The notes under the pieces are model-generated. The model saw nothing but the letters and a program-made list of their open reading frames with translations, did no database searches and was not told the origin of the DNA. From Candidatus Saccharimonadota bacterium (lineage in GTDB: Bacteria > Patescibacteriota > Saccharimonadia > Saccharimonadales > Saccharimonadaceae): DNA of 32,000 bases. Positions 51-26,671 of the stretch are shown piece by piece. The stretch is from NCBI GenBank assembly GCA_023898645.1, contig CP060232.1, positions 1-32,000 of the forward strand. Direction: 5' to 3'. Position numbers and translations under genes: made by a program. The number at the start of each line of letters is the position of its first letter. The stretch's first letter is position 1.

Positions 51-2984
51 ATGAAAACACCTTTGGATGTTAATGCCAGGGTGGGCGAAATGGCTGACCC
101 GAATAGCAAAAGACGGGAGGGCTTACGACGTGCCCAAAAACAGGCTGAAATAGACGCTACATCAAACCAAGATACACATAATAGATCGTCTAGTTTTTCG
201 ACCAGCTCACTAAAAGATCTTGAAGAAACCGGTAGTAAAACCACATCTCAAAGCAATCAATCGTCAGTACGATACCGACCACAATCTAATCGCACTAGAG
301 GGGCGTCTAAATACTTACAGCGGCTTACAAAAATAAAACTACAAGGTAAAAGCTCTATGGCGGCTGTCATTATGGCGGTATTTCTAGGTGGTGGATTTTT
401 GACTATATTATTTTCGCCTAGCTTAGCGATTGTCGAGATGAAGGAAGTGCTTACTCAAGCACTTAACGACCAGCTACATGCCGTTGATTCACGCTCGACG
501 TCGCTTTTTAAGGCAACAATGAAAGGTCCGGCTTCATGCGGAATGGTTGCTGTATGTAAAAAGTTTTCAACCATGTCGACGAACGAAGTAAAAGAATTTG
601 AAAAAAATAAGAGCGGTATAAAAATCGACAGAGAAATGATTGATGCCGAAAATGGAAAGGTAACAAAGGTCACCTTTACAAACGAAACGGGGAAGGTAAC
701 ATCGATCACGAGTGATGTGGAATTACAAAATTCTCTTAAGAATAATGTCGAATTTAAAGCCGCTTGGACAAAGGGATTTAATCCACAATATAAAAGCTTG
801 TCCGATCCGCTGGTTAAAAAAGTCCTCTACAAGCTAAAGGCGACAAAGAATGAAGATATAAGTGGTAAGAACGACGAGGAGCGCCAGAAAAAACTCAACC
901 AAGCGGCTGGTGGTGTTGAAAATACCGGCGCCAAAACAATTACCGAAGTAACAGACAAAAACGGTAACAAGACATACATCGATGAAAACGGTAATCCGAT
1001 CGATCCGAGTAAGGTCGACTCCGCCAGTGCGATGGAAAAACGCATCGAAGGGTACGTGTCACATGGCGGTACGGCAGGTGTGTTAAAGAATGCCACCGTC
1101 GGAGCAGTCGCAGTAGATGGAGCTGCAGACACCGCTTGTACGCTCTTTAACGGCATTAGGCACGTATCAGCATTAGCGAAGGATATTAAGAAAGCTCAGA
1201 TAGCACGTTATGCGCTCGCGCTCGTACTAACACCCGCCGATCGTATAAAGGCTGGTGATGCGACCGAAGCTGAAACGAATTTCGTCGGCAATACCCTCAT
1301 GGCGAGCACACCATCTTCACAAGTGCTCGATGAATCGAAATTATCAAAAACTGCAATCGGCAAACCACCGACAATTGCGAGTACAGACATCGGTAGTGCG
1401 TTCGATTCAAAAGGTTACAAATTAGCATCCGGAGAATCAATTGGCAAACTCACAGCTAACGATGCGCGCTTTGCGCTTGGCGGGGGCGGATCACCGGCAA
1501 TTCTCGACACCGTTACAAGAGATATCTCTAAAGTTGTTAATGGCGGCAATTCAGACCCGAAGGCTCTGAGTAAAAAATGTAGTTACATACAAAGCTGGTT
1601 TGTGCGCGGAGGTGCGCTAGCTGCTGGAATTGTAACTGGCGCAGCGACTCTTGGAATATCGACGCTCGTCATTGGCGGTGCGTCGTTCGCACTACAACTC
1701 GCAGCTCCGTTAATCGAATCAGCTCTTGGTGACATGATTGCTGGCGACGTCGTGAAAGATATATCCGGCTACGACAGTGGTAATGCAGTTTACGCCGGTA
1801 GCGCCGGCATGCTTGGTGACATAGCTGAAAATAGAGGCATGGCTCCAGTTACCACTCAAGGTGGCGCTGATTACCTAGCTGAAAACCGTCAAACCACTGC
1901 GCAATATGCGTCACTTAGCCGCTACATGGCGCGCACGACGCCATTTGACATCAGTAACCGATATTCATTCCTAGGCTCTATCGTTTCAACCCTGATACCA
2001 ATTGCAGAACAGTCAAAATCTAGCGCCAGTATGGCGATGATGAATATTGCTGCGCTCATACCAAATTCGTTTGCTAGCATCTACCAACCAGCAGCCGGAG
2101 CACTGTCGAGTAATTATTTTGGTCAATGTAACGATATGACATATCAATCACTTGGCATAGATGCGGGGCCATTCTGCGAAGTTCGCCACTGGATGAGCAA
2201 TAAAGAACTTGCTATAGATCCCGTTCAAAATGCCATCTGGATGGCAAATAGTGGCAACATCGACCCGTCGAGTGAAACAGGTGACGCAAAGGACAATGGC
2301 CAAGACTGGAACTACGTTAAATTCCTTGATCAATGTGCGCATCGCACCGCCGGATGGGGTGAACCTCAGGACGAAAACGGTGGTGGCGATGGAAGTAATT
2401 GCCTCAACCCTAAGTACCAGGACATGAATGAACATTTCCGCGTTTACACAATGGATCAATCACTAAAGACATCTATGGATACCGTAGATCAAACCCAATC
2501 AAATCTACCTGGTACTACTGGCTTCGCTGACGGGCAAACTACTTCGGTCAGTTCCGACGGCTGGGCGTATCCGACAGCAAAAGACGACACCATAACATTC
2601 GGCTATCAGCCTGGTCATGAAGGAGTAAATATAGCTGATAAAAATTCTACGGCGACAATCGGTCAACCGATTTTTGCAGTTTACGACGGAAGGGTTGTAG
2701 CCGCCGGACCATCCCTAAACTACGGTAATTGGATCGTGCTCGAACATCAGGTAAAAAATCAGACGATGTCGACCGTCTATGCTTACATGAATAATGATGG
2801 TGTGCTTGTACGCGCAGGCGACACGGTGAAAGCAGGGCAAGAAATTGGCCGCATAGGCACTAATGGTAGCGGGAATAGACCGTATCTATACTTTGAACTA
2901 TGGCAGGGGCAAGCACTTAATAATGGTACACGTGTTGATCCGACAGAAATACTCAACAAGGCGCAAGGAGCAAAAAATGCTTAG
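51..2984 (+). CDS. Large membrane-anchored envelope protein with a C-terminal degenerate (probably non-catalytic) LytM/M23-like domain
   Basis: 977-aa ORF. Basic, disordered N-terminus, then a hydrophobic helix MAAVIMAVFLGGGFLTILF and a Gly/Ala-rich hydrophobic block (GGALAAGIVTGAATLGISTLVIGGASFALQLAAPLI). The last ~125 aa follow the M23 fold pattern (GHEGVNIA..YDGRVV..GNWIVLEH..YAYMNN..VKAGQEIGRIGTNGSGNRPYLYFELW), but the Zn and catalytic residues are substituted. The exact start is uncertain (ATG 51, or the internal Met at MADPNSK). Confidence 0.85.
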   Translation: MKTPLDVNARVGEMADPNSKRREGLRRAQKQAEIDATSNQDTHNRSSSFSTSSLKDLEETGSKTTSQSNQSSVRYRPQSNRTRGASKYLQRLTKIKLQGKSSMAAVIMAVFLGGGFLTILFSPSLAIVEMKEVLTQALNDQLHAVDSRSTSLFKATMKGPASCGMVAVCKKFSTMSTNEVKEFEKNKSGIKIDREMIDAENGKVTKVTFTNETGKVTSITSDVELQNSLKNNVEFKAAWTKGFNPQYKSLSDPLVKKVLYKLKATKNEDISGKNDEERQKKLNQAAGGVENTGAKTITEVTDKNGNKTYIDENGNPIDPSKVDSASAMEKRIEGYVSHGGTAGVLKNATVGAVAVDGAADTACTLFNGIRHVSALAKDIKKAQIARYALALVLTPADRIKAGDATEAETNFVGNTLMASTPSSQVLDESKLSKTAIGKPPTIASTDIGSAFDSKGYKLASGESIGKLTANDARFALGGGGSPAILDTVTRDISKVVNGGNSDPKALSKKCSYIQSWFVRGGALAAGIVTGAATLGISTLVIGGASFALQLAAPLIESALGDMIAGDVVKDISGYDSGNAVYAGSAGMLGDIAENRGMAPVTTQGGADYLAENRQTTAQYASLSRYMARTTPFDISNRYSFLGSIVSTLIPIAEQSKSSASMAMMNIAALIPNSFASIYQPAAGALSSNYFGQCNDMTYQSLGIDAGPFCEVRHWMSNKELAIDPVQNAIWMANSGNIDPSSETGDAKDNGQDWNYVKFLDQCAHRTAGWGEPQDENGGGDGSNCLNPKYQDMNEHFRVYTMDQSLKTSMDTVDQTQSNLPGTTGFADGQTTSVSSDGWAYPTAKDDTITFGYQPGHEGVNIADKNSTATIGQPIFAVYDGRVVAAGPSLNYGNWIVLEHQVKNQTMSTVYAYMNNDGVLVRAGDTVKAGQEIGRIGTNGSGNRPYLYFELWQGQALNNGTRVDPTEILNKAQGAKNA

Positions 2985-4254
2985 ACGTCTACTCGCACTC
3001 GTTCTAACTGTCGTAATTATATCGAACCAGCTATGTGACGTCGCAAGGGCAGCTTCAACATATGATCAACAATTTTATTCGGGCAACGACATATTGTTTT
3101 ACGACCCGCGCTGCAGTAGCGGCCAGGCAACTGGTTACGTAACACTAAATGGTAAAGATAATCTGGAAAAAATACTTACATTCTTCATGCAACACGGGCT
3201 AACATTGGCGCAAGCTAGTGGCATCGCCGGTAACTTCATGGCGGAGTCCGGCCTTGACCCAACTATCATCCAAGGAGGAGGTCATGCACAGTCAGGAAGT
3301 GGCTACTCGCCAGTGTCCGGCGTAGGCTTCGGACTTGCTCAATGGACATCCGGCGGGCGTCAAACGGGACTCGTCCAAGAAACTCAACAGCTCGGCGTAG
3401 ACGTCACTGACCTAGGGGGGCAACTGTCTTACGCGTGGAAAGAATTGTCCGTAAACTACCCGAACACATTAGTTGCACTCAAAGCCACAGATAATCCTGT
3501 TGATGCCGCGGTTACCGTTCATGACGGATATGAAAGTTCGGCCGACTCTCGTGCAGCCGTCGTGAATAATCGCGGTGGCAACGCGCAAAAATTTTATAAC
3601 ATGTATAGCGATGCACCAGCCCTCGCCGGTTCGACAAGCGATGTTAAATCACTTAGTAATGTATCTTCCAACGGCTCGTCGAGTACGACTAGCGGCGCTT
3701 GTGTTTCACCCGGCTTTGGTAATGGCGACATTCAAAACATGGTCAAGCAGTACGCTTGGTCGCAATACATCAGCTACAGTTCAAACTTATTACCCGAAAC
3801 AGGCGGAAGAACCGTCTTTGCATCTGATCAAACACCAGCCTATGCCGCAGCTGTAGTGAAGGCACACAGCGAAGATCGCTACACTGGCGGTATATCAGTT
3901 ATTGGCGATGACTGTGGTGGCTTCGTCAGTATACTTATGTACGACAGTGGCTTCGACAAAGGCTACAACTCAGGTGACAGAGGAGGTCCAACAACAGCTC
4001 AAGAGGCATGGTTAAGACAGAACTGGCAGCAGATAAGTTCAACCGATGCGACTGATCGTCAGCCTGGTGACGTCGCGATTAATAACGATCATACTTACGT
4101 CTACGTCGGCAATATACCAGGTTTCGGCAGTCAAATCGCATCAGCATCGGTATCTGGACCTGTACGAGCACCAATGGCCGGTCAGGAGTCTGTTGCTGAT
4201 TCGTCGTTCCGTTGGTATCGTAAAAAAGCAAACTTAACACCGGCTAATTTATAA
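2977..4254 (+). CDS. Secreted bifunctional peptidoglycan hydrolase: lysozyme-like N-domain (CwlT / phage-tail-lysozyme type) plus NlpC/P60-like cysteine peptidase C-domain
   Basis: Start taken at ATG 2977 (MLRRLLALVLTVVIISNQL.., a signal-peptide-like N-terminus), overlapping the upstream stop by 8 nt. The motif GIAGNFMAESGLDP..GFGLAQWT has a candidate catalytic Glu at 3244-3246. The C-domain has DDCGGFVS (Cys 3913-3915) and GDVAINNDHTYVYVG (His 4090-4092), resembling the NlpC/P60 DCSGxV and HVxIYxG motifs. Confidence 0.8.
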   Translation: MLRRLLALVLTVVIISNQLCDVARAASTYDQQFYSGNDILFYDPRCSSGQATGYVTLNGKDNLEKILTFFMQHGLTLAQASGIAGNFMAESGLDPTIIQGGGHAQSGSGYSPVSGVGFGLAQWTSGGRQTGLVQETQQLGVDVTDLGGQLSYAWKELSVNYPNTLVALKATDNPVDAAVTVHDGYESSADSRAAVVNNRGGNAQKFYNMYSDAPALAGSTSDVKSLSNVSSNGSSSTTSGACVSPGFGNGDIQNMVKQYAWSQYISYSSNLLPETGGRTVFASDQTPAYAAAVVKAHSEDRYTGGISVIGDDCGGFVSILMYDSGFDKGYNSGDRGGPTTAQEAWLRQNWQQISSTDATDRQPGDVAINNDHTYVYVGNIPGFGSQIASASVSGPVRAPMAGQESVADSSFRWYRKKANLTPANL

Positions 4255-4257: not shown

Positions 4258-4890
4258 ATGTATTACGATTTCATTCATCAGCACAAACAGCAATTTAAAA
4301 TAGCTGGTATCGCATTTATAGTGCTCGTAGTATGGTGGGGGATTGCAACATTCGTCGACCAAAATGGCAAGATTCCGGTTGTCGTATCGGTCGTACCTAG
4401 TGATGCGACTGTCACGTTTAACGGCAAAAGTGAAGGAAATGGCACACACTATTTACCAGCTGGGTCATATGAAGTGACTGTTCGTAAAGATGGGTTTAAA
4501 ACTGAAACGGAACAGGTGATAGTTACTGGTAAAAAACAACAAAATGTCGTCGCTGCATCGCTTACCGCCGAGAGTACTGATGCGAAAAAGTGGGCAAAAG
4601 AACATTCTGATGATTATGCAAAAAATCAAGCATATGGCGCCATCGAAGCTAATAGTAACGGAAGTTATTTTACCGCTAAAAACCCAATCACAACCAAGCT
4701 GCCCTATAATGACCCGTACTTCACGATTGGCTATATCGTCAACAAAGACCAGTCTATTACTTTGACCGTAGTAACACCGTCACCACGTTACCGATTCTAC
4801 GCCGTGCAACAAATCCGCGATCTCGGCTATGATCCGACTGATTTCAAAATTATGTTCAAGGATTTTCATAATCCGCTGGAGCAGAAATGA
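4258..4890 (+). CDS. Membrane-anchored PEGA-domain protein
   Basis: 210 aa. N-terminal TM helix (IAGIAFIVLVVWWGIATF) followed by a PEGA-like beta motif (VVSVVPSDATVTFNGKSEGNGTHYLPAGSYEVTVRKDGFKTETEQVIV). Starts 3 nt after the upstream stop. Confidence 0.75.
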   Translation: MYYDFIHQHKQQFKIAGIAFIVLVVWWGIATFVDQNGKIPVVVSVVPSDATVTFNGKSEGNGTHYLPAGSYEVTVRKDGFKTETEQVIVTGKKQQNVVAASLTAESTDAKKWAKEHSDDYAKNQAYGAIEANSNGSYFTAKNPITTKLPYNDPYFTIGYIVNKDQSITLTVVTPSPRYRFYAVQQIRDLGYDPTDFKIMFKDFHNPLEQK

Positions 4891-5360
4891 ACGAACAAAT
4901 AAAATTAACGCTAATTATTATCGTATCCGTGATTGTCGGTGTCGGCGCCTTTACTTACGGCGCACTAACAGCAAACCCCGATCAAAAACAGACCTCAGTA
5001 GTCGCATCTACACCTAAGCCAGCAAAGATCGATTTGACGAAACAGCTACAAACCGAGCGCTCAACAATAATTGGCGTACTAACAAGTGCATACCCGAAAA
5101 TCAGCTCCGATTATACAATTGCCGACGGCAAGCTTTATAACAAAGGGGAGTGGTACGGCACCACGTTAACATACCACGGAAAAGACACCTTAAGTCGCGA
5201 CACACTCCGCGTACTCATGCAAAAAAAGCAGGGTCTATGGATACTACGAACAACTCCGCCACGCCTACTACTTTCGACTGTTGAATTCCCAGATGTGCCA
5301 AAATCCATACTCACCGCAATCAACCAACCTGTTAGCTTGCCAGCTGGTAGCGAAAACTAG
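4887..5360 (+). CDS. Small membrane-anchored hypothetical protein
   Basis: 157 aa. N-terminal TM helix (LTLIIIVSVIVGVGAFTYGAL). ATGA start/stop overlap with the upstream gene, and GGAG lies 5 nt upstream of the ATG. Confidence 0.7.
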   Translation: MNEQIKLTLIIIVSVIVGVGAFTYGALTANPDQKQTSVVASTPKPAKIDLTKQLQTERSTIIGVLTSAYPKISSDYTIADGKLYNKGEWYGTTLTYHGKDTLSRDTLRVLMQKKQGLWILRTTPPRLLLSTVEFPDVPKSILTAINQPVSLPAGSEN

Positions 5361-9130: not shown

Positions 9131-9591
9131 AAATCTCCCTCTCCAGTCTAGAACTGGTTGGCATCTATTTGTCGGTAGCGAATTTTAAGCAGTTACTATG
9201 ATTTGATATTTACTTTCTCGTGACAAGGCGTATCTAGATGATACGTCGCGAAGCGAAAAGCGGATATCAAGTAGTAAAACTTGAAATTTTAGCCGGCATA
9301 TAGATGTTAACTAGTTCTCTTAACGCTGCGTCATCGACGCGGTGAATACTGGTTAGTACTATACGGTAGACGGAACTTTTCCACAACTACAAAAGAGATA
9401 AATTCAGACAGGCTTATTAGGGGAGGTATTTTTCCACAGTTTGGATCCTCATCTATAAATATGTGGATAAGTCTGAGAGTTTGGTGGATAAATTAGAACC
9501 CGTCTTTGAATTTTTTACAAATATAAATGGAAACTCAGGTGTGTGCCTTGACCTTGCGAAAATATGAAAAATACGGTAGAGTAGTACAGTT
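9131..9591. other. Candidate oriC (dnaA-rpmH intergenic region) with DnaA boxes and an AT-rich stretch
   Basis: A 461-bp non-coding gap. It contains TTTTCCACA at 9377-9385 and 9430-9438, a perfect box TGTGGATAA (reverse complement TTATCCACA) at 9462-9470, and GGTGGATAA at 9483-9491. The two plus-strand boxes face the two minus-strand boxes. An AT-rich run follows at about 9505-9535. The rpmH and dnaA promoters must also lie here. Confidence 0.6.
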
Positions 9592-9729
9592 ATGCCAAAG
9601 AGGACACACCAACCACACACACGACACCGTGCAAGGACGCATGGCTTTCGAGCGCGCGTTGCAACCAAGGCTGGTCGCGCAGTATTGAAGCGCCGCCGAC
9701 TTAAAGGTCGCGCAAAGGTTTCAATTTAA
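9592..9729 (+). CDS. rpmH: 50S ribosomal protein L34
   Basis: Not in the ORF track because it is under 60 aa. Hand translation gives [45 protein letters not shown] (45 aa), a typical L34 pattern (..THGFRAR..T..GR.VL..RR.KGR). Sits in the conserved position before rnpA. Confidence 0.92.
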
Positions 9730-9730
9730 G

Positions 9731-9756
9731 AAACTCCGCCCAGTGGGCGGAGTTTT
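9731..9756 (+). terminator. Rho-independent terminator-like hairpin directly after rpmH
   Basis: AAACTCCGCCC (9731-9741) pairs perfectly with GGGCGGAGTTT (9745-9755) around a 3-nt loop, and the stem runs into TTTT (9753-9756). Confidence 0.55.
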
Positions 9757-9779
9757 CATAGTATTCTATATAGACAAAT

Positions 9780-10130
9780 ATGATAGCTTTTGAAAATCGC
9801 TTTCACGGCCACGGTAGCCTCAAGTACGTATATGCACACGGACATACGGTGCGTTCTCATTTGATGGCGCTTAAATACACCACTCACCCAAAGCGCAACA
9901 AACCACGAGCTGCGGTTGTGGTGAGTAAAAAGGTGCTCAAGCACGCCGTAGGAAGGAATCGTATACGACGTCGTATCTATGAAATTATTCGTCTTGAGTT
10001 ACCTGAGCTGCACCAAAATCGTGACTTGGTGTTTCTTGTGTTTTCGGCAGAGGTACTCACAGTACCGCACGAAGAGCTGACGGAGATCGTCCGGCAGCTA
10101 CTTGCATCTGCTGGTGTCTATAAAAAATAG
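9780..10130 (+). CDS. rnpA: Ribonuclease P protein component
   Basis: 116 aa and basic. Carries the RNR motif region KKVLKHAVGRNRIRRRIYEIIR. Lies in rpmH-rnpA-yidC synteny. Confidence 0.88.
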   Translation: MIAFENRFHGHGSLKYVYAHGHTVRSHLMALKYTTHPKRNKPRAAVVVSKKVLKHAVGRNRIRRRIYEIIRLELPELHQNRDLVFLVFSAEVLTVPHEELTEIVRQLLASAGVYKK

Positions 10131-10185
10131 TAAAAAAATGGTACCATGGAGGAAACTAATGTGCCCGATTGTGGAGTGTTAAAAC

Positions 10186-11151
10186 GTGAACATTTTTGAA
10201 ATTCTTATTGTCCAACCGCTATTCAACCTACTAATGTTGCTTTACGCAGTAATACCTGGTGCTGATTTTGGCGTCAGTATCATACTGTTCACTATCCTCC
10301 TCAGGATCGCACTATACCCTCTTGTTAAACGACAGCTTCACCAGACGAAGGCTATGCGTAAGCTCCAGCCAGAGCTGGAACTAATCAAGAAGCGGACAAA
10401 GGGTAATCGCCAACTTCAGGGCGTTCAGATGATGGAGCTCTATAAGCGCCACGGAGTTAGTCCATTCCGTTCTATCGGTATTGTCGCTATTCAGATCCCA
10501 ATCTTTATCGCACTTTACTTGGTCATTCGTATATTTACACTTCATCGCGATCAGCTAGCTCAATACACATATGATTTCTTGCAGAATATCGGGCCAATTA
10601 AACACGTCCTTGATCACCCGGAAGCGTTTAATGAAAAGCTCTTTGGTTTCGTTGATCTTACAAACCAGGCTATCGCTGCAGACGGCATTAATATCGTTTT
10701 GATCCTACTAGCTGTAGTGGCTGCTGTTGGCCAATACTACCAAAGCAAGCAAACATTGCCACAGGTAGACAATAAACGTAGTTTACGTGAAATTCTAAGT
10801 GAAGCCGCGAGCGGCAAAGAAGCTGACCAGTCAGACATCAACAACGCTATTATGGGTAAGATGGTATATGTACTACCATTCTTTATGTTGTTTATTATGC
10901 TTAGTTTGCCAGGTGCAATTTCACTTTACTATGCGACTAACACTATCGTTGCTGTGATACAACAAGGTAGAGTCTTGCGTGAAGACGAAGAAGAACTGGA
11001 AGACATGGCTGATCACCCTAAAAAATCAGGCAAAAAAGCCACCGCTAAAGCTCGAGCGCGCACCGCCGAAGAAGCGACCGTTACAAGAATCGTTGCAAAA
11101 GGCTCACGCCCTAATAAACAAAACGACCGCAGTAAAGGAGGGAAATCATGA
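10186..11151 (+). CDS. yidC: Membrane protein insertase YidC/Oxa1 family (short form with a basic C-terminal tail)
   Basis: 321 aa with a GTG start and GGAG 9 nt upstream. Multi-TM protein with the conserved LYPLVKRQ..MRKLQPE..IKK..K motif and a Lys/Arg-rich tail. TGA stop. Confidence 0.9.
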   Translation: MNIFEILIVQPLFNLLMLLYAVIPGADFGVSIILFTILLRIALYPLVKRQLHQTKAMRKLQPELELIKKRTKGNRQLQGVQMMELYKRHGVSPFRSIGIVAIQIPIFIALYLVIRIFTLHRDQLAQYTYDFLQNIGPIKHVLDHPEAFNEKLFGFVDLTNQAIAADGINIVLILLAVVAAVGQYYQSKQTLPQVDNKRSLREILSEAASGKEADQSDINNAIMGKMVYVLPFFMLFIMLSLPGAISLYYATNTIVAVIQQGRVLREDEEELEDMADHPKKSGKKATAKARARTAEEATVTRIVAKGSRPNKQNDRSKGGKS

Positions 11152-11609
11152 ATAGTCAGGAATCTCTAGAAGAGGCAAAGAAATACTTAGCCGATACGCT
11201 GTCGTTTTTTGGTGTGAATGTTGAGGTTGAGGGGCATTTAGACGAAGACGTTATAGAACTAAACGTACCATCTACCGACATCAATAGTTTACTTATAGGT
11301 CGCAACGCTGAAACGCTTCGTAGTATGCAACTTTTGGTATCTACGATGCTTCGCACAAAAGAAGCGGAGGTGTCACGGGTTAATATCGACATTGCTGACT
11401 ACAAGAAGCAGCGTGCTGAAAAGGTTGCCGAACAAGCTCGCGAGTGGATCAAAGAAGTGTTAGAAACCGGTGATTCGCATGTTGCTAAACTTAACGCCGC
11501 TGATCGTCGTGTCGTACACCACGTAGCGAGTGAATTCGAAAACATCCAGACGTTTTCTGAAGGCGAAGGCCGCGATAGGCGCATCATTATAGCTCAACAA
11601 AGCTCATAA
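11148..11609 (+). CDS. jag: Jag/KhpB-like RNA-binding protein (KH plus R3H domains, no long N-terminal Jag_N region)
   Basis: 153 aa. ATGA overlap with yidC. R3H-like C-terminus (LNAADRRVVHHVASEFENIQTFSEGEGRDRRIII). Conserved position after yidC. Confidence 0.8.
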   Translation: MNSQESLEEAKKYLADTLSFFGVNVEVEGHLDEDVIELNVPSTDINSLLIGRNAETLRSMQLLVSTMLRTKEAEVSRVNIDIADYKKQRAEKVAEQAREWIKEVLETGDSHVAKLNAADRRVVHHVASEFENIQTFSEGEGRDRRIIIAQQSS

Positions 11610-11648
11610 TCTATAGATTCTATCAGGTAATTAGAAGTAAGTACTGAG

Positions 11649-12770
11649 TTACTGTGTTTTAGATTTATCTAAAGCGTTGTTATAGACGTCGAGTGTTTGC
11701 CCAGCCATGCGCTTCCAGGAGTATTTCTTAACCTGTAAGGCGCCGCGGCGTATGAGTTCTTGTCGTACTTTAGAGCTGTCGAGGATTCTACTTACTTGCT
11801 TGGCGATGTCTTGTGGTTTAGAAGGGGCGAAATAGAGCGCGGCGTCGCCGAGTACTTCAGGTAGACAAGTGGCATTACTGCTAGCAACTGGTGCTCGGTG
11901 TTTCATGGCTTCAAGTGCAGGCAACCCAAAGCCTTCCATGTAACTCGGAAATACATAAGTAGCGCAATGAGTATAGAACCATGCTAGTTGCGCATCGGTG
12001 GCAAAGCCGAAGAACTCAATTTTACGGTAGCCTTTGGCGTATGCCCACTCCTCTAGCTCGCGACTAGTGCGATCGCGGTTGCCGATGATAACCAGGTGTA
12101 GATCGGGGTGGGTCTTGCGGAGTTTATGGTGCGCGATTATGGCGCCTTTTTGATTTTTGTATGATTCCGCCCGACCAACGACAATCATGAATTTTTTTCC
12201 TACGTATCGTTGAGTTGGTTCTGCCTTTTTAGACACTAAATCCGCAGCTTCGTACGTGACTACGACTTTATATGGTGGTATTGATTGAAATTTAAGTAAA
12301 TCATCTTTTGTATATTGCGTTGGCGTCAACACAAAAGCTGAGCGCTTTACGACTTTGCGGAGGAGTCGGCGGAATACTCGTTGTTTAAATCTAAGCGTGC
12401 GCTTGGACATACCTTCGTTTTCTTTGATACGAAGGAGGTTAAGGTCGTGGACGGTTGTGACAGACAAGCCGCGGTAGAGTAGCGGTTGCTGTGGCATGCA
12501 GAAATGAACTAAGTCTGGTTTGAGCCTGCGCAAGAAAAAGTAAAAACGAAACTGCTCGGCTAGGGAGTACTGATGATAATCCGCAACGACGATTTTGAAA
12601 TTATCTTTACGTGGTTTCCAGTAGTCTACGTCTTTGGCGCGTACAAGTACACTGTATTGGTGCGGTGAATCAAGCCGTTCCAGGTAGGTGAGAAGCCGCT
12701 CTATATAGCGACCAGTGCTGGAGTTGATAATGCGAGCATCAATCGCGATGTGCTTGGGTGGAGTTTTCAT
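11649..12770 (-). CDS. GT-B fold glycosyltransferase, family 4-like
   Basis: 373 aa with the typical GT4 C-terminal motif (FPSYMEGFGLPALEAMKHRAPVASSNATCLPEVLGDAALYF). Confidence 0.85.
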   Translation of the reverse strand: MKTPPKHIAIDARIINSSTGRYIERLLTYLERLDSPHQYSVLVRAKDVDYWKPRKDNFKIVVADYHQYSLAEQFRFYFFLRRLKPDLVHFCMPQQPLLYRGLSVTTVHDLNLLRIKENEGMSKRTLRFKQRVFRRLLRKVVKRSAFVLTPTQYTKDDLLKFQSIPPYKVVVTYEAADLVSKKAEPTQRYVGKKFMIVVGRAESYKNQKGAIIAHHKLRKTHPDLHLVIIGNRDRTSRELEEWAYAKGYRKIEFFGFATDAQLAWFYTHCATYVFPSYMEGFGLPALEAMKHRAPVASSNATCLPEVLGDAALYFAPSKPQDIAKQVSRILDSSKVRQELIRRGALQVKKYSWKRMAGQTLDVYNNALDKSKTQ

Positions 12771-13711
12771 TTCTTACTCTTCTTTTTGTGGTATTCATCA
12801 ACAAAGTATAACGGCCGCTGCTTAGTTTCGTGAAATATCCGCCCTACGTATTCACCAATAATACCAAGCGACAGTAGCTGAACTCCACCAAGAAACAAAA
12901 TTGCCGCCATAGTCGACGGGTAACCGGCGATATCTGCGCCATAGAGCAACGTACGTGCAATTAAGTAGATGATATAGATGAACGCTAGAAACGACACTGT
13001 CATGCCGAGAATGGTCGAAAACCGTAGCGGTGCAGTGGTGAACGATACAAAACCGTCGACTGCTAGGTTTATAAGCTTGAAGTAATTCCACTTGGTGGCG
13101 CCGGCAACTCGCGGATCGCGTACGTAGGAAATCTCTTTTTTGCGGTAACCAATCCAACTAAACAGGCCTTTGGTGTAGCGTTCACTTTCGCGTAGTTGCT
13201 GGAGTGCTTGCACGCAGCGACGGTCGAGTAGGCGAAAATCGCCAGTGTCGCGCTGAATCTGGATGTTGGTTGAGCGCTGGAGTATACGGTAGAACCACGA
13301 CGACGTCTTGCGCTTGAGCCACGACTCACCTATACGAGCAGCTCGGCGGGCGTAGACGTCATCGTAACCTTCCTCCCATAGCTTAATCATGTCGGGTATA
13401 AGTTCTGGTGGATCTTGCAAGTCGGCGTCTATGATCACGAGTGCATCGCTCTGTACGTGGTCTATACCGGCAATCATGGCAATTTCTTTACCAAAGTTAC
13501 GTGAAAGATTAACGTAGCTTATCGACGTGTCTTTTTTGGCAAAGTTTTTTATTAATTTCAATGAGCCGTCTGTGCTGCCATCATTTACAAACAAAAGCTC
13601 AAAAGAATAGTTGGGGAGTGATTTCACGAGACTCGTGAGTCGTTTATGAAGTTTTGGTAATACTTCTTCCTCGTTGTAAGTGGGAATCAGGATCGTGATG
13701 GACTTCGTCAT
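12767..13711 (-). CDS. GT2 polyprenyl-phosphate glycosyltransferase (GtrB/ArnC/DPM1-like) with two C-terminal TM helices
   Basis: 314 aa. Motifs ILIPTYNEE, FVNDGSTDGS, IIDADLQDPPE. C-terminal TM pair ending in the GIIGEYVGRIF motif typical of this subfamily. Confidence 0.85.
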   Translation of the reverse strand: MTKSITILIPTYNEEEVLPKLHKRLTSLVKSLPNYSFELLFVNDGSTDGSLKLIKNFAKKDTSISYVNLSRNFGKEIAMIAGIDHVQSDALVIIDADLQDPPELIPDMIKLWEEGYDDVYARRAARIGESWLKRKTSSWFYRILQRSTNIQIQRDTGDFRLLDRRCVQALQQLRESERYTKGLFSWIGYRKKEISYVRDPRVAGATKWNYFKLINLAVDGFVSFTTAPLRFSTILGMTVSFLAFIYIIYLIARTLLYGADIAGYPSTMAAILFLGGVQLLSLGIIGEYVGRIFHETKQRPLYFVDEYHKKKSKK

Positions 13712-13759
13712 ACTTTCCTCAGTATAGCACTTTTACAGAGGTTGAGGCGTCGATTACTG

Positions 13760-14773
13760 TTATTTTCCAGTGAAGATTTTGCGAAATTTTCGTAGCCCTG
13801 TTTGGTTGGGCGGCAGGTCGTGAACGATGACAGAGTTAATATAATTAGTTGATACTGATTTACCTCTTTGAATTATCCACCGCTGATGAACTGTATGGGG
13901 TATGTATATAAATGAATACCAAACACCCTTTACAGCCGGCCATGCCTTACCACTAACCAATGCCTTGAGTAATATTAGGTTGTAAGCAATAAAAAAACGG
14001 ATACCGATAGGTAATAGGAGATTACGCGGTGTATTTTTCCAAAATAACATCGGAAGATTTTTAAAGGTTTGATATACGGTGAATCCTGGGACCATTTTTT
14101 TGCTTGTTTCACCCTGGTGATGAGTAACGAATGATTTTGGATTATATACAACTTTCCAACCCGCAAGTTGCGCACGGAAACTAATATCAGTATCTTCGTA
14201 GTAAGCAAAAAACTTTTCGTCGAATAAACCAATGTCACGAAAAAGTGCAGTTTTGTATAAACTTGCTCCGCCGCTAGCCCCAAAGACGAATTCTTTCTCG
14301 TGGTAGCTGTCTACAGACTTTCCGCGGCCACGTGGGTAAGGCAAGCCCCATGTCGTATAAAATTCACCTGTACTATCGAGGATTGAGCCGTCTTTGAGTT
14401 TGATGCAGCAGGTTGCGATACCGATCTTAATGTCGTCTTGTATTGAATTTACGAGTTCAGACAACCATTCACTATCAGCCACGGCATCGTTATTAAAAAG
14501 TGCCACAGCGTCGTAACCATGTTTGATTGTGTAAGATATGCCAACATTTACGCCACCTGCAAAACCAAGATTCTTCTCATTTTGTAAAATGGTTATTTTG
14601 TCATTGTATGATTTGAGGATATCGAGAGAGTTATCCCTTGATCCATTCTCTACAATGATAATATCGGCAGACATATCTTGTTGTAGTAGGGAATCGATAG
14701 CCTCCTCAATAAAGTCCGCACCATTGAAGTTGGGAATTACAACCGCTAGCTTCTCTATCGACTTATGGGACAT
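13760..14773 (-). CDS. GT2 glycosyltransferase (rhamnosyltransferase-like subgroup)
   Basis: 337 aa. Motifs VVIPNFNGADFI, VENGSRDNS, NLGFAGGVNVGI, FNNDAV, FFAYYEDTDISFRAQLAGW. Confidence 0.8.
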   Translation of the reverse strand: MSHKSIEKLAVVIPNFNGADFIEEAIDSLLQQDMSADIIIVENGSRDNSLDILKSYNDKITILQNEKNLGFAGGVNVGISYTIKHGYDAVALFNNDAVADSEWLSELVNSIQDDIKIGIATCCIKLKDGSILDSTGEFYTTWGLPYPRGRGKSVDSYHEKEFVFGASGGASLYKTALFRDIGLFDEKFFAYYEDTDISFRAQLAGWKVVYNPKSFVTHHQGETSKKMVPGFTVYQTFKNLPMLFWKNTPRNLLLPIGIRFFIAYNLILLKALVSGKAWPAVKGVWYSFIYIPHTVHQRWIIQRGKSVSTNYINSVIVHDLPPNQTGLRKFRKIFTGK

Positions 14774-14786
14774 ACCACTTTATAAT
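14758..14786 (+). promoter_or_regulatory. Candidate sigma70-type promoter for wzm (TCGACT-17 nt-TATAAT)
   Basis: A perfect TATAAT at 14781-14786 lies only 10 nt before the ATG at 14797. The -35-like TCGACT at 14758-14763 lies inside the divergent GT2 coding sequence. Confidence 0.35.
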
Positions 14787-14796
14787 ACAGTAAAAG

Positions 14797-15597
14797 ATGA
14801 AACAATTTGTCTCAAAATCAAACCGTGCATTACTGTCGGAACTGGTACGGACAGACTTCAAACTACGATATCAGGGATCGCTGCTTGGGTACGCATGGTC
14901 GCTATTAAAACCCCTTCTCCTCTTTATTATTCTTTACGTTGTATTTGTTTATTTTCTAAGGATAGGCAAGGGAATTCCGCATTTTCCTGTGTATTTATTG
15001 CTCGGAATTGTATTATGGAATTTCTTCGTTGAGATGACGATGCAAAGTCTTAGTTCTATTGTTGGACGAGGCGACCTTATCCGAAAAATCCGTATACCAC
15101 GGTGGATGATTGTATTTTCAAGTAGTATATCGGCAACGATAAATCTATTCCTTAGTCTTATTGTTGTTATTGTTTTTATGGTAATAAACCAGGTTCCTAT
15201 AGGTGTAGGGATATTAATACTTCCACTATATGCACTTCTCATATATCTGTTCGCACTTGGCTGTTCATTATTTTTAGCTGCTGCATATGTAAAGTTTCGT
15301 GATTTGAGTTATATATGGGAAGTTGTCTTGCAAGCTGGGTTTTATGCGACACCAATTATCTACCCACTACAGCTTATTCACGACCAATTTATTGTAAAAA
15401 TTCTACTTCTTAATCCAATAGCGTTTGCGGTCCAGGGTGCTAGATACTATCTTGTCACACACGAAACTATAACGGCACAAGGCGTTTGGGGTGGATCATG
15501 GTATATTCTCGTTCCTCTCTTCTTTACTATCTTAATTCTTATCTTTGGTCTACTTTACTTTAAGAGTCAGGCTCGAACTTTTGCGGAGAATATATAA
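14797..15597 (+). CDS. wzm: ABC-2 type polysaccharide/teichoic-acid export permease
   Basis: 266 aa with about 6 TM helices. N-terminal LVRTDFKLRYQGSLLGYAWSLLKPLL motif typical of Wzm/TagG/RfbA permeases. Directly coupled to the ATPase gene. Confidence 0.85.
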   Translation: MKQFVSKSNRALLSELVRTDFKLRYQGSLLGYAWSLLKPLLLFIILYVVFVYFLRIGKGIPHFPVYLLLGIVLWNFFVEMTMQSLSSIVGRGDLIRKIRIPRWMIVFSSSISATINLFLSLIVVIVFMVINQVPIGVGILILPLYALLIYLFALGCSLFLAAAYVKFRDLSYIWEVVLQAGFYATPIIYPLQLIHDQFIVKILLLNPIAFAVQGARYYLVTHETITAQGVWGGSWYILVPLFFTILILIFGLLYFKSQARTFAENI

Positions 15598-16784
15598 TGA
15601 CAAACGACGACAATATAGCAGTAAGAGTTTCTGGAGTTAGCAAAAGTTTTAAATTACCACTCGAAGCTCAAAACTCACTCAAAGGAAGGCTTATTAACTT
15701 CAATAAACGTGGCTATGAAGTACAACACGCATTAAAGGATGTATCGTTTGATGTAAAAAAGGGTGATTTCTTTGGAATTGTAGGTCGTAATGGCAGTGGA
15801 AAAAGTACCCTACTTAAGCTTATATCGGGTATATACAGTACGGATAAGGGTAGTATAGAAACGAATGGAAAACTGGTTCCTTTCATTGAGCTTGGCGTAG
15901 GATTTAACCCGGAATTATCTGGACGAGATAACGTTTACCTTAACGGTGCACTCCTAGGTTTTAATCGGAAAGAAATGGACGCAATGTATGACGATATTGT
16001 CGAATTTGCCGAATTAGGGCGTTTCATGGACCAGAAACTTAAGAACTATTCCAGTGGAATGCAAGTGCGATTGGCATTTTCTATCGCAATACGTGCAAAT
16101 ACTGACATTCTTGTTTTAGACGAGGTGCTTGCTGTTGGAGACGAGGCGTTCCAAAAAAAATGCATAGCTATTTTTGAAGAATATAAGGCTCGCAAACAAA
16201 CTATCATATTAGTGACACATGACATGGGGGTTGTTGAGAAGTTTTGCAATAGAGCTATTTTGATTGAAGATGGTGTAATAAAAAAAGAAGGCTCACCCAC
16301 ACAAGTTGCTCTTGCGTACCGTGACAGTAACAATGTTTCATATGCACGTGACATGGAGAGCTCTCAACAGCGAAAAACAGCTCGTATTGAGAGAAAGATA
16401 GATATAGAAATATTGTCAGCGAAGACCCATGAGAAACAAAATCGTTTCAATTATGGCAGTAAGATGATTGTAAGACTACGGTGGGATGACGCGCATGTAC
16501 ATTCCGCAGGGGTTGCTATCATGAAGCTTAGTGGTGAGAATATATTTGCACCTAACACGTATCAGGATAAGTTGAAGCTTAGTGATAGCACTCGTGAGAT
16601 TGAATATGAAGTAACACTCAATTTAGCTACAGGGGACTATTATATCAAGGCAGGATTATTTGGAAAAACAGACGAAATGATAATCGCCTTTGATGATGAG
16701 GGCCCTTCGTTTATAGTTGAACCAGAGGTTGGGGGTAAGCATTGGAATGGCCTTACAAAACTAGATTACAAGTGGAAGATATAA
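15597..16784 (+). CDS. wzt: Polysaccharide export ABC transporter ATP-binding protein with a C-terminal substrate-binding-type extension
   Basis: 395 aa. Walker A GRNGSGKST, signature YSSGMQVRLAF, Walker B ILVLDEVLAVGD. An extra ~140-aa beta-rich C-domain (..LNLATGDYYIKAGLF..) resembles Wzt C-terminal glycan-binding domains. TAATG start/stop overlap with wzm. Confidence 0.88.
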   Translation: MTNDDNIAVRVSGVSKSFKLPLEAQNSLKGRLINFNKRGYEVQHALKDVSFDVKKGDFFGIVGRNGSGKSTLLKLISGIYSTDKGSIETNGKLVPFIELGVGFNPELSGRDNVYLNGALLGFNRKEMDAMYDDIVEFAELGRFMDQKLKNYSSGMQVRLAFSIAIRANTDILVLDEVLAVGDEAFQKKCIAIFEEYKARKQTIILVTHDMGVVEKFCNRAILIEDGVIKKEGSPTQVALAYRDSNNVSYARDMESSQQRKTARIERKIDIEILSAKTHEKQNRFNYGSKMIVRLRWDDAHVHSAGVAIMKLSGENIFAPNTYQDKLKLSDSTREIEYEVTLNLATGDYYIKAGLFGKTDEMIIAFDDEGPSFIVEPEVGGKHWNGLTKLDYKWKI

Positions 16785-16849
16785 ACACGTAACCACTAGG
16801 CATGAAGTATAATAGTAGAAGTTAATGAGCAAGGATATAACATTTAAAC

Positions 16850-18106
16850 ATGCCTGATCGAAACACGCCAAAGAAATATCTTAATAAGTCTGTGCAAGTA
16901 CTTCGTGATGAGGGGGTATTATCGCTTGGTGTGAAGGGGCTACGAAAGATTGCTGATAAAATTGAGCAATCGAATAAGGGCTCGGCATTTATGAAAAGGA
17001 AGAAGTTTACATCGATTGTGGATCGACGCGATGTGATGCTTGCAGACTGGGTTGGATCACCGTATAAACCAAGCTTAGAACCAATTGACCCACTAAAGGT
17101 GACGAATTGGATTATCTCACCACCATCTGGTGGTGGCGGTCATCAGAATATGTTTCGTTTTATCGAACATTTGGACCGGAATGGTTTTCAAAACAATATT
17201 TATCTTTACTCAGCACTTGACCCGATGCCAATAACTGAGGCAAAATTGAATGTAGCTAAGTATGCGAAACTAAAAAATACAAATTTTTACAATTATAAAC
17301 GTGGGTCAAAAATGTCTGATGCAGATGTTGTATTTGCAACAGGCTGGGAGACGGCGTATCCGGTATTTAATGAAAAAACAACCGCAAAAAAGTTCTATTT
17401 TGTGCAAGATTTTGAGCCGTATTTTTACTCGATAGGTACGGAATATATACTAGCCGAGAACACATATAGATTTGGATTCCACGGTATCACTGCAGGTAAT
17501 TGGTTATCGACAAAACTGGCGGCAGACTATGGCATGAAGTGTGATTCATATGATTTTGGTGCCGATAAAGATGTGTATAAATTCAAAAACAACGACAAGC
17601 GCAAGGAGGTGTTCTTTTATGCCCGTCCCGTTACAGAGCGTCGTGCCTTTGATTTGGGCGTTATGACACTCGAAATTTTTCATAAACTTCATCCAGATTA
17701 CATAATAAATCTTGCGGGGTGGGATGTGTCTTTGTATGATATTCCATTTCCCTATGTAAATCACAAGGCGCTTAGAATCGAGCAACTGCCAGATTTGTAC
17801 AATAAATGTGCCGTCGGGCTTGTGTTATCACTTACTAATATGTCGCTACTGCCCCTTGAACTCATTTCATGTGGCGTCATTCCAGTAGTAAATGAAGGTG
17901 CTAATAATCATGAAGTAAGTAGTAACCCTTACATTTCCTACATAGATACTTCACCGGTAAGTTTAGCAAAGGCGATGTCAGATATTGTTACTCGCAAAGA
18001 TTCCTCCGAGTATGCGAAAAAGGCTTCCAGAAGTACTGCAGACGCGTCGTGGGAAGAGGCGAAGGAAAAGTTCATGGCCATTCTGGAGCGAGAAATCTAT
18101 GGCTAA
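16850..18106 (+). CDS. GT-B glycosyltransferase, WsaF-like (possible rhamnosyltransferase)
   Basis: 418 aa. N-domain SPPSGGGGHQNMFRFIEHL and FVQDFEPYFY resemble, from memory, the WsaF-family N-terminal domain. The C-half is Rossmann-like. The family assignment is not verified. Confidence 0.6.
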   Translation: MPDRNTPKKYLNKSVQVLRDEGVLSLGVKGLRKIADKIEQSNKGSAFMKRKKFTSIVDRRDVMLADWVGSPYKPSLEPIDPLKVTNWIISPPSGGGGHQNMFRFIEHLDRNGFQNNIYLYSALDPMPITEAKLNVAKYAKLKNTNFYNYKRGSKMSDADVVFATGWETAYPVFNEKTTAKKFYFVQDFEPYFYSIGTEYILAENTYRFGFHGITAGNWLSTKLAADYGMKCDSYDFGADKDVYKFKNNDKRKEVFFYARPVTERRAFDLGVMTLEIFHKLHPDYIINLAGWDVSLYDIPFPYVNHKALRIEQLPDLYNKCAVGLVLSLTNMSLLPLELISCGVIPVVNEGANNHEVSSNPYISYIDTSPVSLAKAMSDIVTRKDSSEYAKKASRSTADASWEEAKEKFMAILEREIYG

Positions 18107-19037
18107 GTGTCTCGTATTAGGTGCGAACGGTTTAATCGGCAGTTACATTGTCGATTCGCTCGTGGATGCGGGTCACGAAGTTAGGGCATTTGACCGATTT
18201 GGCGCTGATAAAGAGAATTATAAAGAGTCGGATAATGTAAGTCAGTTTACTGGAGATTTCCTTAATAGTAATGATTTAAAGATTGCGCTTGAAGGGATGG
18301 ACTATGTTTTTCACTTCATATCAACAACAACACCGATAACAGCAGAAAATGATCCAACAATAGACATTGAAACGAATATACGTATGAGTGTCGAACTATT
18401 TCAATTATGTGTAGAAAAGGGTATTAAAAGAATTATCTACCCTTCAACGGGCGGAGCAATTTATGGATTGTCACCAACGAGCACTGGTGTTCATAGTGAA
18501 GACGACCCGACTCTTCCAGTTTCCCCGTATGCAATTGGTAAGTTGACAATTGAAAATTATCTCCGATATTTTTATACAAAATATGGTCTGGACTATATTA
18601 CATTTCGTATATCAAATCCGTATGGAAATCGACAATCTCACCAAAGTAAACAAGGTGTGATTCCTATTTTTCTTGACAGGATAAGTAATAATCAGCCGAT
18701 TACGGTTTATGGTGACGGGTCTATGATTCGTGACTATATCTATGTTAAAGATGTCGCAGATATGATTGTGAATGCTTTCGATAAACAGCATAAACGCAAT
18801 ACATATAACATTGGCTATGGTAATGGGGCTTCGGTAAATGAAATCATTGACTGTATAGAAGAGGTGACGGGTATAAAGCCGAATATTAAACACGAAACCA
18901 AACCGGTGACATTCATCGACAAAGTAGTTCTCGACACGTCACGTTACATGTCGGAATTCCACATGGAGCCATCGACAAGTCTCCGTGATGGGATAGATGC
19001 GACATATAAAAGTATAACAAAGACACAACCGTCATGA
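18099..19037 (+). CDS. NAD-dependent nucleotide-sugar epimerase/dehydratase (extended SDR)
   Basis: Start taken at ATG 18099 (MAKCLVLGANGLIGSYIV, a GxxGxxG motif), with an 8-nt overlap on the upstream gene. Catalytic YxxxK at SPYAIGK. Confidence 0.85.
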   Translation: MAKCLVLGANGLIGSYIVDSLVDAGHEVRAFDRFGADKENYKESDNVSQFTGDFLNSNDLKIALEGMDYVFHFISTTTPITAENDPTIDIETNIRMSVELFQLCVEKGIKRIIYPSTGGAIYGLSPTSTGVHSEDDPTLPVSPYAIGKLTIENYLRYFYTKYGLDYITFRISNPYGNRQSHQSKQGVIPIFLDRISNNQPITVYGDGSMIRDYIYVKDVADMIVNAFDKQHKRNTYNIGYGNGASVNEIIDCIEEVTGIKPNIKHETKPVTFIDKVVLDTSRYMSEFHMEPSTSLRDGIDATYKSITKTQPS

Positions 19038-20023: not shown

Positions 20024-20040
20024 ACGATGTAAAACTCTTA

Positions 20041-20049
20041 TGGTATAGT
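20041..20049 (+). promoter_or_regulatory. Possible extended -10 element (TGGTATAGT)
   Basis: TGnTATAGT ends 13 nt before the TTG at 20063 and 22 nt before the ATG at 20072. Confidence 0.3.
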
Positions 20050-20062
20050 AAGAGGGGTTATA

Positions 20063-20635: not shown

Positions 20636-20639
20636 TATT

Positions 20640-23000: not shown

Positions 23001-23020
23001 CGAGAAAAGACCCGCAAGGG

Positions 23021-23029
23021 TGTTATAAT
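23021..23029 (+). promoter_or_regulatory. Candidate extended -10 promoter element (TGTTATAAT) for the GT-C gene
   Basis: A perfect TGnTATAAT ends exactly 13 nt before the ATG at 23043, with no SD in between. The paralogue at 30877-30885 has the same geometry. Confidence 0.4.
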
Positions 23030-23042
23030 AAATGCAATAATC

Positions 23043-26605: not shown

Positions 26606-26671
26606 TTGATCTATATATATTATATAGAATAACTGACAAATATAACCCAAAAACAACTATAATAGGATTCA

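Follow-up and report, generated by a model that had tools for sequence, protein, structure and literature searches.

Does the large membrane protein encoded near the type IV secretion ATPase VirB4 of Saccharibacteria cut the cell wall, as its peptidase annotation implies, or does it only carry the fold of a peptidase? We addressed this question in a stretch of 32,000 nucleotides (nt) from a Candidatus Saccharimonadota bacterium (positions 1 to 32,000 of contig CP060232.1, assembly GCA_023898645.1; hereafter the window). It opens with the gene of a protein of 977 amino acids (aa), here called BIG, which ends in a LytM/M23 peptidase domain, and continues with the gene of a two-domain hydrolase, here called HYD. 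An earlier note, made from the sequence alone, had proposed that the M23 domain of BIG lost its zinc and catalytic residues. The profile search, the family alignment and the structure model all agreed with this proposal: an M23/LytM fold is present and its zinc ligands and catalytic histidines are lost. The domain fits the degenerate LytM class, having a retained M23 fold, an incomplete catalytic set and signs of selection. The "peptidase" beside VirB4 is thus not uniformly an enzyme, being dead yet selected in one clade and intact, or replaced by another hydrolase, in the sister lineages.

The M23 head: residues, family history and selection

The gene and its segments are as follows.

51 to 2984, + strand: BIG gene, 977 aa, with a conserved N-terminal module (N-module) of ~830 aa and a C-terminal degenerate LytM head
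357 to 431, + strand: predicted transmembrane anchor, aa 103-127 (hydropathy scan)
1608 to 1727, + strand: second hydrophobic stretch, aa 520-559 (40 aa; hydropathy scan)
2556 to 2966, + strand: degenerate LytM/M23 domain, aa 836-972 (AlphaFold2 and Foldseek), its Pfam part being aa 856-964 at nt 2616-2942
2616 to 2630, + strand: motif 1, HEGVN (canonical HxxxD), with His856 kept and the zinc-ligand Asp replaced by Asn860
2778 to 2786, + strand: motif 2, YAY, Tyr910-Ala-Tyr912 (canonical YxH), with the catalytic His replaced by Tyr912
2880 to 2897, + strand: motif 3, PYLYFE (canonical PHxHFE), with the catalytic His replaced by Tyr945 and the zinc-ligand His by Tyr947

Peptidase_M23 was the sole Pfam match of the 977-aa protein (aa 856-964, 74 bits, E 1.2e-20), and since the gathering cut-off of this family (PF01551) is 28.7 bits, the domain call stood well above chance level. 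The translation of 2559-2984 contains GYQPGHEGVNIADK, then STVYAYMNNDG, then GNRPYLYFELWQG. Retranslation placed the codons exactly where the earlier note had put them: His856 is encoded by CAT at 2616-2618, Asn860 by AAT at 2628-2630, Tyr912 by TAC at 2784-2786, Tyr945 by TAT at 2883-2885 and Tyr947 by TAC at 2889-2891. Four of the five zinc and catalytic positions were replaced, and His856 alone remained. Motif 1 read HEGVD, HEGVN or HEGVS in the nearest relatives.

In phmmer alignments, the active enzyme StM23 (9gy1) showed HNGID, YGHV and PHLHFE opposite HEGVN, YAYM and PYLYFE, and EnvC (4bh5/8c0j) carried YGY and PSLYFE at the corresponding places. At the YxH motif, the alignment to LytM itself was two residues out of register. 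The assignment of Tyr912 was nevertheless settled, because intact orthologues of the same family carry DH[KR]GVD, YGHM and PHLHFE in identical ungapped columns, independently of LytM. The domain contains only two histidines, His856 and His899, the latter in the conserved "VLEH" strand; the canonical positions offered no alternative His/Asp/His site. An AlphaFold2 model, made from the family member P0001, which differs from the window protein at residue 384 only, gave a predicted local distance difference test score (pLDDT) of ~85-90 for the domain (full-length mean pLDDT 72, predicted TM-score 0.68). Foldseek matched the modelled domain to StM23, the EnvC-AmiB complex, DipM, LytM, lysostaphin and SpoIIQ (3uz0/3tuf), with target-normalised TM-scores of ~0.70-0.81 for single-domain entries. 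Thus, the Pfam alignment and structure prediction that had been suggested as checks confirmed the domain and bore out the idea that the fold was kept despite the residue losses.

Active M23 enzymes require the HxxxD and HxH ligands, and family members in which the catalytic set is incomplete or zinc is absent retain the fold and have mostly protein-protein interaction roles (PMC9662197). The sequence losses, considered with the precedents of EnvC and of PrgK, a wall protein of the pCF10 type IV secretion system (T4SS), make it very probable that the head of BIG is non-catalytic. NCBI holds a protein of the same length from a metagenome-assembled genome (MAG), USN96574.1 on a 1.13-Mb contig, under the name "M23 family metallopeptidase", an annotation that is misleading for this clade.

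To place the loss in the history of the family, we recorded which residues occupy the five catalytic positions of 46 M23 domains, drawn from homologues and orthologous loci, paralogue heads included. The intact state HDHHH occurred in ten orthologue lineages and HDNHH in three, and the clade of the window protein showed H[N/D/S]YYY. The neighbours of this clade carried YSHHL, KVHY[A/T], [K/R]THY[S/A], [I/F]DNHR and YARYY, and two further degenerate heads, P0018 (HARYY) and L006 (HDHRR), were placed among intact relatives. In a neighbour-joining tree of the N-module, built on BLOSUM distances and therefore rough, though clear in its polarity, all basal branches were intact, and the dead states formed one derived clade plus at least 2-3 independent events (P0018, L006 and P0021/22). 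Because intact HDHHH orthologues hold the basal branches, the loss is derived: degeneration is a feature of one sub-clade and arose inside Saccharibacteria from an intact ancestor. No frameshift, stop or truncation was found in ~20 degenerate orthologues.

When 1.84 billion cluster representatives (50% identity) were searched with a family profile, 795 family members were returned at E<=1e-30, and we took a census of heads in the best 175 of these with a complete N-module, calling M23 with our own hidden Markov model. M23 heads were found in 96 of the 175 (about 55%); 45 of the 95 scored kept all five residues and 14 kept only one. Some of the census states "--HHH" and "GGHHH" were not counted as clean losses, being attributable to alignment trimming or to a subfamily with a different first motif. 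In this subfamily of M23 heads (P0029, P0062, P0064, P0073, P0136 and others), the first motif is G[IL]A[SAV]DI and lacks a His at -4, the three later His are kept and a conserved Cys (..NLCG..) is present; the subfamily may have a different first ligand or represent another partial degeneration. The other heads comprised VanY/M15B, CHAP, Exo_endo_phos+CHAP, Amidase_3, Amidase_2, NlpC/P60, glucosaminidase+M23, Peptidase_C39_2, Alginate_lyase2 and an unnamed LAS-like group with HxxxxxxD...HxH, and 15 members were headless, some of them maybe on truncated contigs. Compared across P0001-P0179, the variable head region corresponds to 2499-2984 of the window. Degenerate LytM domains are well known, and PrgK provides an already characterised case from the wall module of a monoderm T4SS; a modular family that joins a conserved T4SS membrane module to freely exchanged envelope-directed heads is the more unusual observation.

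Selection on the dead head was estimated from a close pair, the window and the 98.4%-identical strain L023 (synonymous divergence ~0.10). The M23 domain had 7 non-synonymous and 9 synonymous changes, giving a ratio of non-synonymous to synonymous rates (omega) of 0.22 (binomial p=0.004 against neutrality) from this single pair with 16 substitutions only; omega was 0.027 for the N-module and 0.023 for HYD. Seven of the 16 amino acid differences between the two strains fell within the 142-aa dead head, at aa 851-924 (G851S, D863G, V877A, N890D, Q900K, N903D and D924N), and were mostly charge changes in loops. The ratio of M23 to N-module identity was 1.47 among intact lineages and ~1.0 among degenerate ones. 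Within the clade of the window protein, seven sequences with three tyrosines, His856, Tyr912, Tyr945 and Tyr947 were invariant at 53-75% identity, and 47% of M23 columns were invariant compared with 38% of N-module columns. The dead domain is therefore under purifying selection, yet less constrained than the rest of BIG. This pattern, neither free drift nor enzyme-level constraint, is that expected of a binding or regulatory surface.

The secretion cluster and the coupled hydrolase

The N-terminus of BIG ahead of the anchor is rich in Lys and Arg, with pLDDT <50 for aa 1-122. Because this basic, low-confidence segment precedes the transmembrane segment, an N-in topology is predicted, with most of BIG including the M23 head outside the membrane. 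Cysteines lie on both sides of the second hydrophobic stretch, possibly a helical hairpin or re-entrant segment; there are eight in all, of which seven are invariant across the family. A weak hydrophobic stretch lies near aa 659-677. The N-module of ~830 aa had no relative in Pfam, NCBIfam, PDB folds or viral folds (BFVD), fold searches of PDB and BFVD with the full-length model matching the M23 domain alone. A VirB6- or VirB8-like label for the N-module was rejected on the same ground.

Further features of the module to which BIG belongs are listed below.

2965 to 2984, + strand: translational-coupling junction, with the Shine-Dalgarno sequence AAGGAG at 2965-2970, the HYD start ATG at 2977-2979 and the BIG stop TAG at 2982-2984 (8-nt overlap)
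2977 to 4254, + strand: HYD, 425 aa, with a signal peptide (aa 1-25), a muramidase domain, a disordered linker and a Cys/His domain
3244 to 3246, + strand: Glu90 of the HYD muramidase domain, aa 61-210 (Phage_lysozyme2, E 3e-28)
3913 to 3915 and 4090 to 4092, + strand: Cys313 (DCGGFV) and His372 (HTY) of the C-terminal Cys/His domain of HYD, aa 250-418
4258 to 4890, + strand: PEGA-domain protein, 210 aa, membrane-anchored, always next in the module and the counterpart of SEML1_0005
4887 to 5360, + strand: P157, 157 aa, membrane-anchored, without a family match, the last gene of the BIG-HYD-PEGA-P157 module

The transmembrane segment, the 8-nt overlap and the lysozyme and Cys/His domains upheld the earlier description of a very large membrane protein whose gene overlaps that of a two-domain hydrolase. 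The window begins 50 nt 5' of BIG, and the upstream genes were read from the 100%-identical Logan contig L001, where a VirB4-type ATPase (DUF87/TraG P-loop) lying 6.5 kb upstream of BIG is followed by genes for a 1069-aa protein, a 155-aa protein, a 443-aa Phage_lysozyme2 protein and a 475-aa protein and then by BIG. Downstream of the module, recF, dnaN and dnaA lie in the window on the opposite strand. Orthologous loci were compared in 20 species-representative genomes, using a family profile from a 19-sequence alignment; 18 of the 20 are labelled Saccharibacteria/Saccharimonadia and the other two Sphingobacteriales and Chloroflexi. By contrast, the public record of USN96574.1/USN96575.1 bears the label "Candidatus Nomurabacteria bacterium". 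In 17 or more Saccharibacteria loci the genes followed one another as VirB4, paralogue, lysozyme, BIG, HYD, PEGA, P157, recF-dnaN-dnaA, and across these loci the BIG stop overlapped or abutted the HYD start, with overlaps of 1-14 nt in at least 12 loci. L015, L016 and L022 had two copies of the whole block BIG-HYD-PEGA-P157. Thus, BIG is a component of the Saccharibacteria Gram-positive-type T4SS cluster beside dnaA.

This placement agrees with published work, in which the T4SS of Patescibacteria is chromosomal, dnaA-proximal and MPF-FATA-like (PMC12102498). In "Ca. Southlakia epibionticum", transposon sequencing found the T4SS genes SEML1_0006-0019 essential for epibiotic growth, including "peptidase and lysozyme homologues" downstream of virB4: both SEML1_0007 (1113 aa), with a C-terminal Hedgehog/DD-peptidase (M15) fold, and SEML1_0006, a lysozyme-lysozyme-cysteine proteinase, are essential (PMC10633639). 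We compared the two clusters by gene order and annotations (Wang 2023, Tables S1/S2). SEML1_0007 and SEML1_0006 of Southlakia ML1 occupy the same cluster position, the order being alike (VirB4, large protein, lysozyme/Cys-proteinase, PEGA, small protein, recF-dnaN-dnaA), and both large proteins are membrane-bound with a C-terminal wall-peptidase fold. The head of SEML1_0007 has the M15 and not the M23 fold, and the genome of the window encodes two paralogous large proteins. We infer homology of the N-module to SEML1_0007 from the VanY-headed family members P0025 and P0028.

The second large protein is the upstream 1069-aa protein, a paralogue of the N-module (23% identity over 714 aa, E 4e-14) with a weak NlpC/P60-like region (DCSSLV...H) at its C-terminus. 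It forms, with the 155-aa, 443-aa lysozyme and 475-aa proteins, a diverged first copy of the block; tandem blocks elsewhere lie at L015:3691-9666 and 9713-15263 and at L016:4454-9922 and 9989-15383. The 443-aa lysozyme protein (L001:5908-7236) has a very weak M23-like region at aa 281-368 (Pfam E 0.06) without His motifs, and its counterparts carry a recognisable M23 domain in L006 (YGHI...PHLHID) and a fully intact one in L013; if the M23-like region is real, both M23 domains of this T4SS cluster are dead. In the L022 MAG, the BIG orthologue, recF and dnaA (intervals 9908-12299, 14916-15627 and 17336-18734) are all split into several open reading frames; assembly frameshifts are a more likely cause than true pseudogenes.

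A profile search identified the N-domain of HYD as a homologue of the phi29 gp13 lysozyme (3csr, E 5.8e-9), and the fold search gave the same match (E 2.4e-5); Glu90, Cys313 and His372 were invariant in 50 homologues. The C-domain was confidently folded in the model (pLDDT ~90) and had no match in Pfam, including CHAP and NlpC, and none in PDB by sequence. Its top Foldseek match was MagC 7bk8 at an insignificant E of 0.88, the template also assigned to SEML1_0006 by Wang et al. 2023. The label "NlpC/P60/CHAP-like" follows from the invariant DCGGF...HTY and from the ECOD assignment made for SEML1_0006 in that study, and with this reservation the C-domain appears Cys/His peptidase-like. The MAG neighbour gene, H6797_00010, is annotated "hypothetical". 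An insertion of 14-16 aa, ISYSSNLLPETGGRTVFAS, at aa ~262-281 of HYD (window 3760-3820), was modelled as a beta-hairpin in the Cys/His domain; every genome with a fully degenerate head had it, as did L006, and it was absent from L007 and all intact-head genomes. Other Saccharibacteria encode fusion proteins (P0208, P0209, P0212, P0214, P0217; P0294) in which a homologue of the lysozyme domain of HYD is joined to a class A beta-lactamase-like domain (PF13354) or an SGNH/GDSL hydrolase (PF13472).

What the head may do

The closest analogue is the pCF10 protein PrgK, from a Gram-positive T4SS. PrgK is anchored in the membrane and comprises a LytM domain crystallised in a degenerate, metal-free form, a gp13-like muramidase (MUR) and a CHAP domain; its LytM and CHAP domains do not hydrolyse the wall and down-regulate the muramidase rather than activate it, and phi29 gp13 is the sole PDB homologue reported for its MUR (PMC11323569). 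PrgK, a VirB1-like protein of the DELTA class in Enterococcus faecalis, is like BIG plus HYD a wall module of an MPF-FATA T4SS with an N-in anchor, and BIG too lies in a Gram-positive-type T4SS cluster with VirB4. The LytM of PrgK lacks HxxxD, HxH and metal, and the pair studied here likewise combines a dead LytM, a gp13-type muramidase and a Cys/His peptidase-type domain. The two systems differ in architecture. PrgK is one polypeptide, whereas here the LytM ends an unrelated membrane module of ~830 aa, with MUR and the Cys/His domain on the separate secreted HYD; the single-polypeptide layout of PrgK and the DELTA class was thus not found, the degenerate LytM being present and MUR encoded by the next gene. 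PrgK also has a CHAP domain, whereas the C-domain of HYD has no Pfam CHAP match.

Because BIG and HYD together unite a dead LytM with a gp13-like muramidase and a Cys/His domain in one T4SS, as PrgK does, we suggest that the head offers a site for docking or regulation, keeping HYD at the secretion system and tuning it there, and give this a probability of about 45%. BIG would be a membrane-anchored, extracytoplasmic T4SS component, according to its predicted topology. In its M23 head, a zinc endopeptidase would have given way to a non-catalytic domain that keeps the beta-sandwich and the groove, and the vacant groove would offer a docking site for HYD. The head would then tether and regulate the secreted, translationally coupled HYD, where we infer both the contact and the direction of regulation, and wall cutting would thereby be restricted to the point where the T4SS crosses the wall. 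The PrgK arrangement of transmembrane segment, dead LytM, MUR and CHAP would in effect be split over two polypeptides.

Several observations weigh against a docking role. The adjacency and overlap of BIG and HYD were equal in genomes with intact heads; since the coupling is independent of head state, it supports a functional linkage of the two proteins and not a specific role of the dead head. Neither the phmmer matches at E<=0.01 nor the 50 best Foldseek matches included the LytM of PrgK (8S0U), and because the LytM sequences are not detectably related and the loss dates to within Saccharibacteria, the resemblance to PrgK is convergent. The omega of the M23 head was ~8-fold that of the N-module (0.22 compared with 0.027), and the head had a larger ratio of non-synonymous to synonymous changes than the remainder of BIG (Fisher p=0.011). 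This faster evolution fits a loosely constrained binding surface and also a partly dispensable domain. The insertion in HYD, considered as a sign of co-adaptation with dead heads, was rejected in that role, as it tracks phylogeny (L007 is without it).

The main rival of docking is pure wall binding, in which the dead groove binds stem peptides or cross-bridges and fixes the T4SS protein to the wall of the epibiont or its host, as an anchor or lectin only, without regulating HYD. All extracellular domains of PrgK, its dead LytM included, bind peptidoglycan in vitro (PMC11323569), the fold and groove-forming strands of the head are conserved, and nearly all the alternative heads are directed at the wall or envelope (VanY/M15, Amidase_2/3, NlpC/P60, CHAP, glucosaminidase, alginate lyase). 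Replacement of three His by bulky Tyr should, however, fill part of the substrate site, and wall binding leaves the gene coupling to HYD unexplained, though it does not contradict it; we regard this rival as unlikely, though by no means negligible. The polymorphism of the heads raises another reading, in which an exchangeable C-terminal domain is shown to the host envelope and serves here as a host-wall adhesin or as a licence for HYD at the contact site. Heads such as Exo_endo_phos+CHAP and Alginate_lyase2 make little sense for remodelling of the cell's own wall, the T4SS is essential for epibiotic growth, and the head evolves faster than the remaining protein. Against this stand its purely comparative basis and the fact that VirB1-like hydrolases of conjugative systems likewise vary in domain content, which make a host-directed head quite improbable. 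A broader version, in which BIG belongs to a large Patescibacteria family (at least 795 clusters) whose T4SS module carries exchangeable, effector-like heads for the host envelope and an M23 cutter was here selected into a host-wall-binding or hydrolase-licensing module, we consider doubtful; if true, the secretion system of this clade, essential for epibiotic life, would contain a naturally occurring "catalysis-off" allele.

The same rate data could point to a relic, an M23 head that drifts after other hydrolases of the cluster (the Cys-peptidase domains of HYD and the 1069-aa paralogue) took over. The 8-fold higher omega, the fall of the M23/N-module identity ratio from 1.47 to ~1.0 in degenerate lineages, the 15 headless members (again, some maybe on truncated contigs) and the replacement of catalytic positions by several different routes are in its favour. 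Decay is hard to reconcile with an omega significantly below 1 (p=0.004), with the lack of frameshifts, stops and truncations in ~20 degenerate orthologues, or with three Tyr that are invariant across a clade of 53-75% identity in a domain still scoring 74 bits in Pfam, so that we rate it as most improbable. That the head is still an enzyme, hydrolysing through His856 and non-canonical ligands such as Tyr or Glu857, draws on the retained His856, on the motif 1 His and Asp kept by the closest relatives P0002-P0004 and on the NCBI name. The second zinc-ligand His and both catalytic His are nevertheless lost, the only other His is the structural one in VLEH, and equivalent losses in the LytM of PrgK and in EnvC gave metal-free, inactive domains (PMC11323569, PMC9662197); residual hydrolysis is accordingly very hard to credit.

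Of the other degenerate LytM proteins, EnvC, NlpD, ActS and DipM, whose M23 fold lacks the catalytic residues and controls a hydrolase through a vacant groove, are among the best structural and partial NCBIfam matches, and EnvC shares two of the tyrosine replacements (YGY, SLY). The vacant groove of EnvC binds an interaction helix of its amidase (PMC10268282). EnvC-type partners are Amidase_3 enzymes with an autoinhibitory helix (for DipM, lytic transglycosylases), whereas this cluster has no amidase gene, and BIG has no EnvC-type coiled coil or FtsEX interface and no LysM by Pfam. The NCBIfam equivalog scores were far under their cut-offs (NlpD, 52 compared with 311 bits; EnvC, 43 with 270; ActS, 53 with 375), and membership among the EnvC/NlpD-type amidase activators was rejected on the scores and the missing LysM and amidase. 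SpoIIQ of the Bacillus A-Q channel, a fold match, is a membrane-anchored degenerate LytM that scaffolds a secretion-system-like conduit between two cells. Its partner SpoIIIAH, with a ring-building motif, has no counterpart in this cluster; at 23.7 bits against a 250-bit NCBIfam cut-off BIG is not a SpoIIQ, and a cell-to-cell role here would be speculative. Phage phi29 gp13 shares the lysozyme family of the HYD N-domain and combines it with an M23 domain for local wall penetration. The M23 of gp13 is an active endopeptidase fused in cis, whereas the one described here is dead and lies on a different protein from the lysozyme.

Our literature search returned no paper that connects degenerate M23 domains with T4SS proteins of Saccharibacteria. 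Among T4SSs, only that of Saccharibacteria/Patescibacteria has been shown to be essential to the growth of its bearer, and the coexistence of intact and dead orthologues offers a natural comparison between cutting, binding and regulating the coupled muramidase. Viewed beside PrgK, the present case suggests that dead LytM domains may be a recurrent way to restrain wall hydrolysis at monoderm T4SSs.

The remainder of the window

Three DnaA-box-like sites, TTTTCCACA twice and TTATCCACA once, lie within 94 bp (9377-9470) in the intergenic region upstream of dnaA, and the GC skew changes sign near 6-8 kb; the box cluster together with the skew switch probably marks oriC, although the count of DnaA-box-like motifs over the whole window was not above chance. 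Beyond it lie rnpA (9780-10130), yidC (10186-11151) and jag (11148-11609), followed by a surface-polysaccharide cluster of ~19 kb (11649-30857). This cluster encodes GT1, GT2 and GT4 glycosyltransferases, ABC-2 Wzm/Wzt, a WsaF-like rhamnosyltransferase, an epimerase, a UDP-glucose dehydrogenase and a methyltransferase, as well as two large proteins without family matches (20063-23000). Its GC content is 0.37-0.40, compared with 0.45-0.49 in the part of the window that holds the T4SS genes and the origin.

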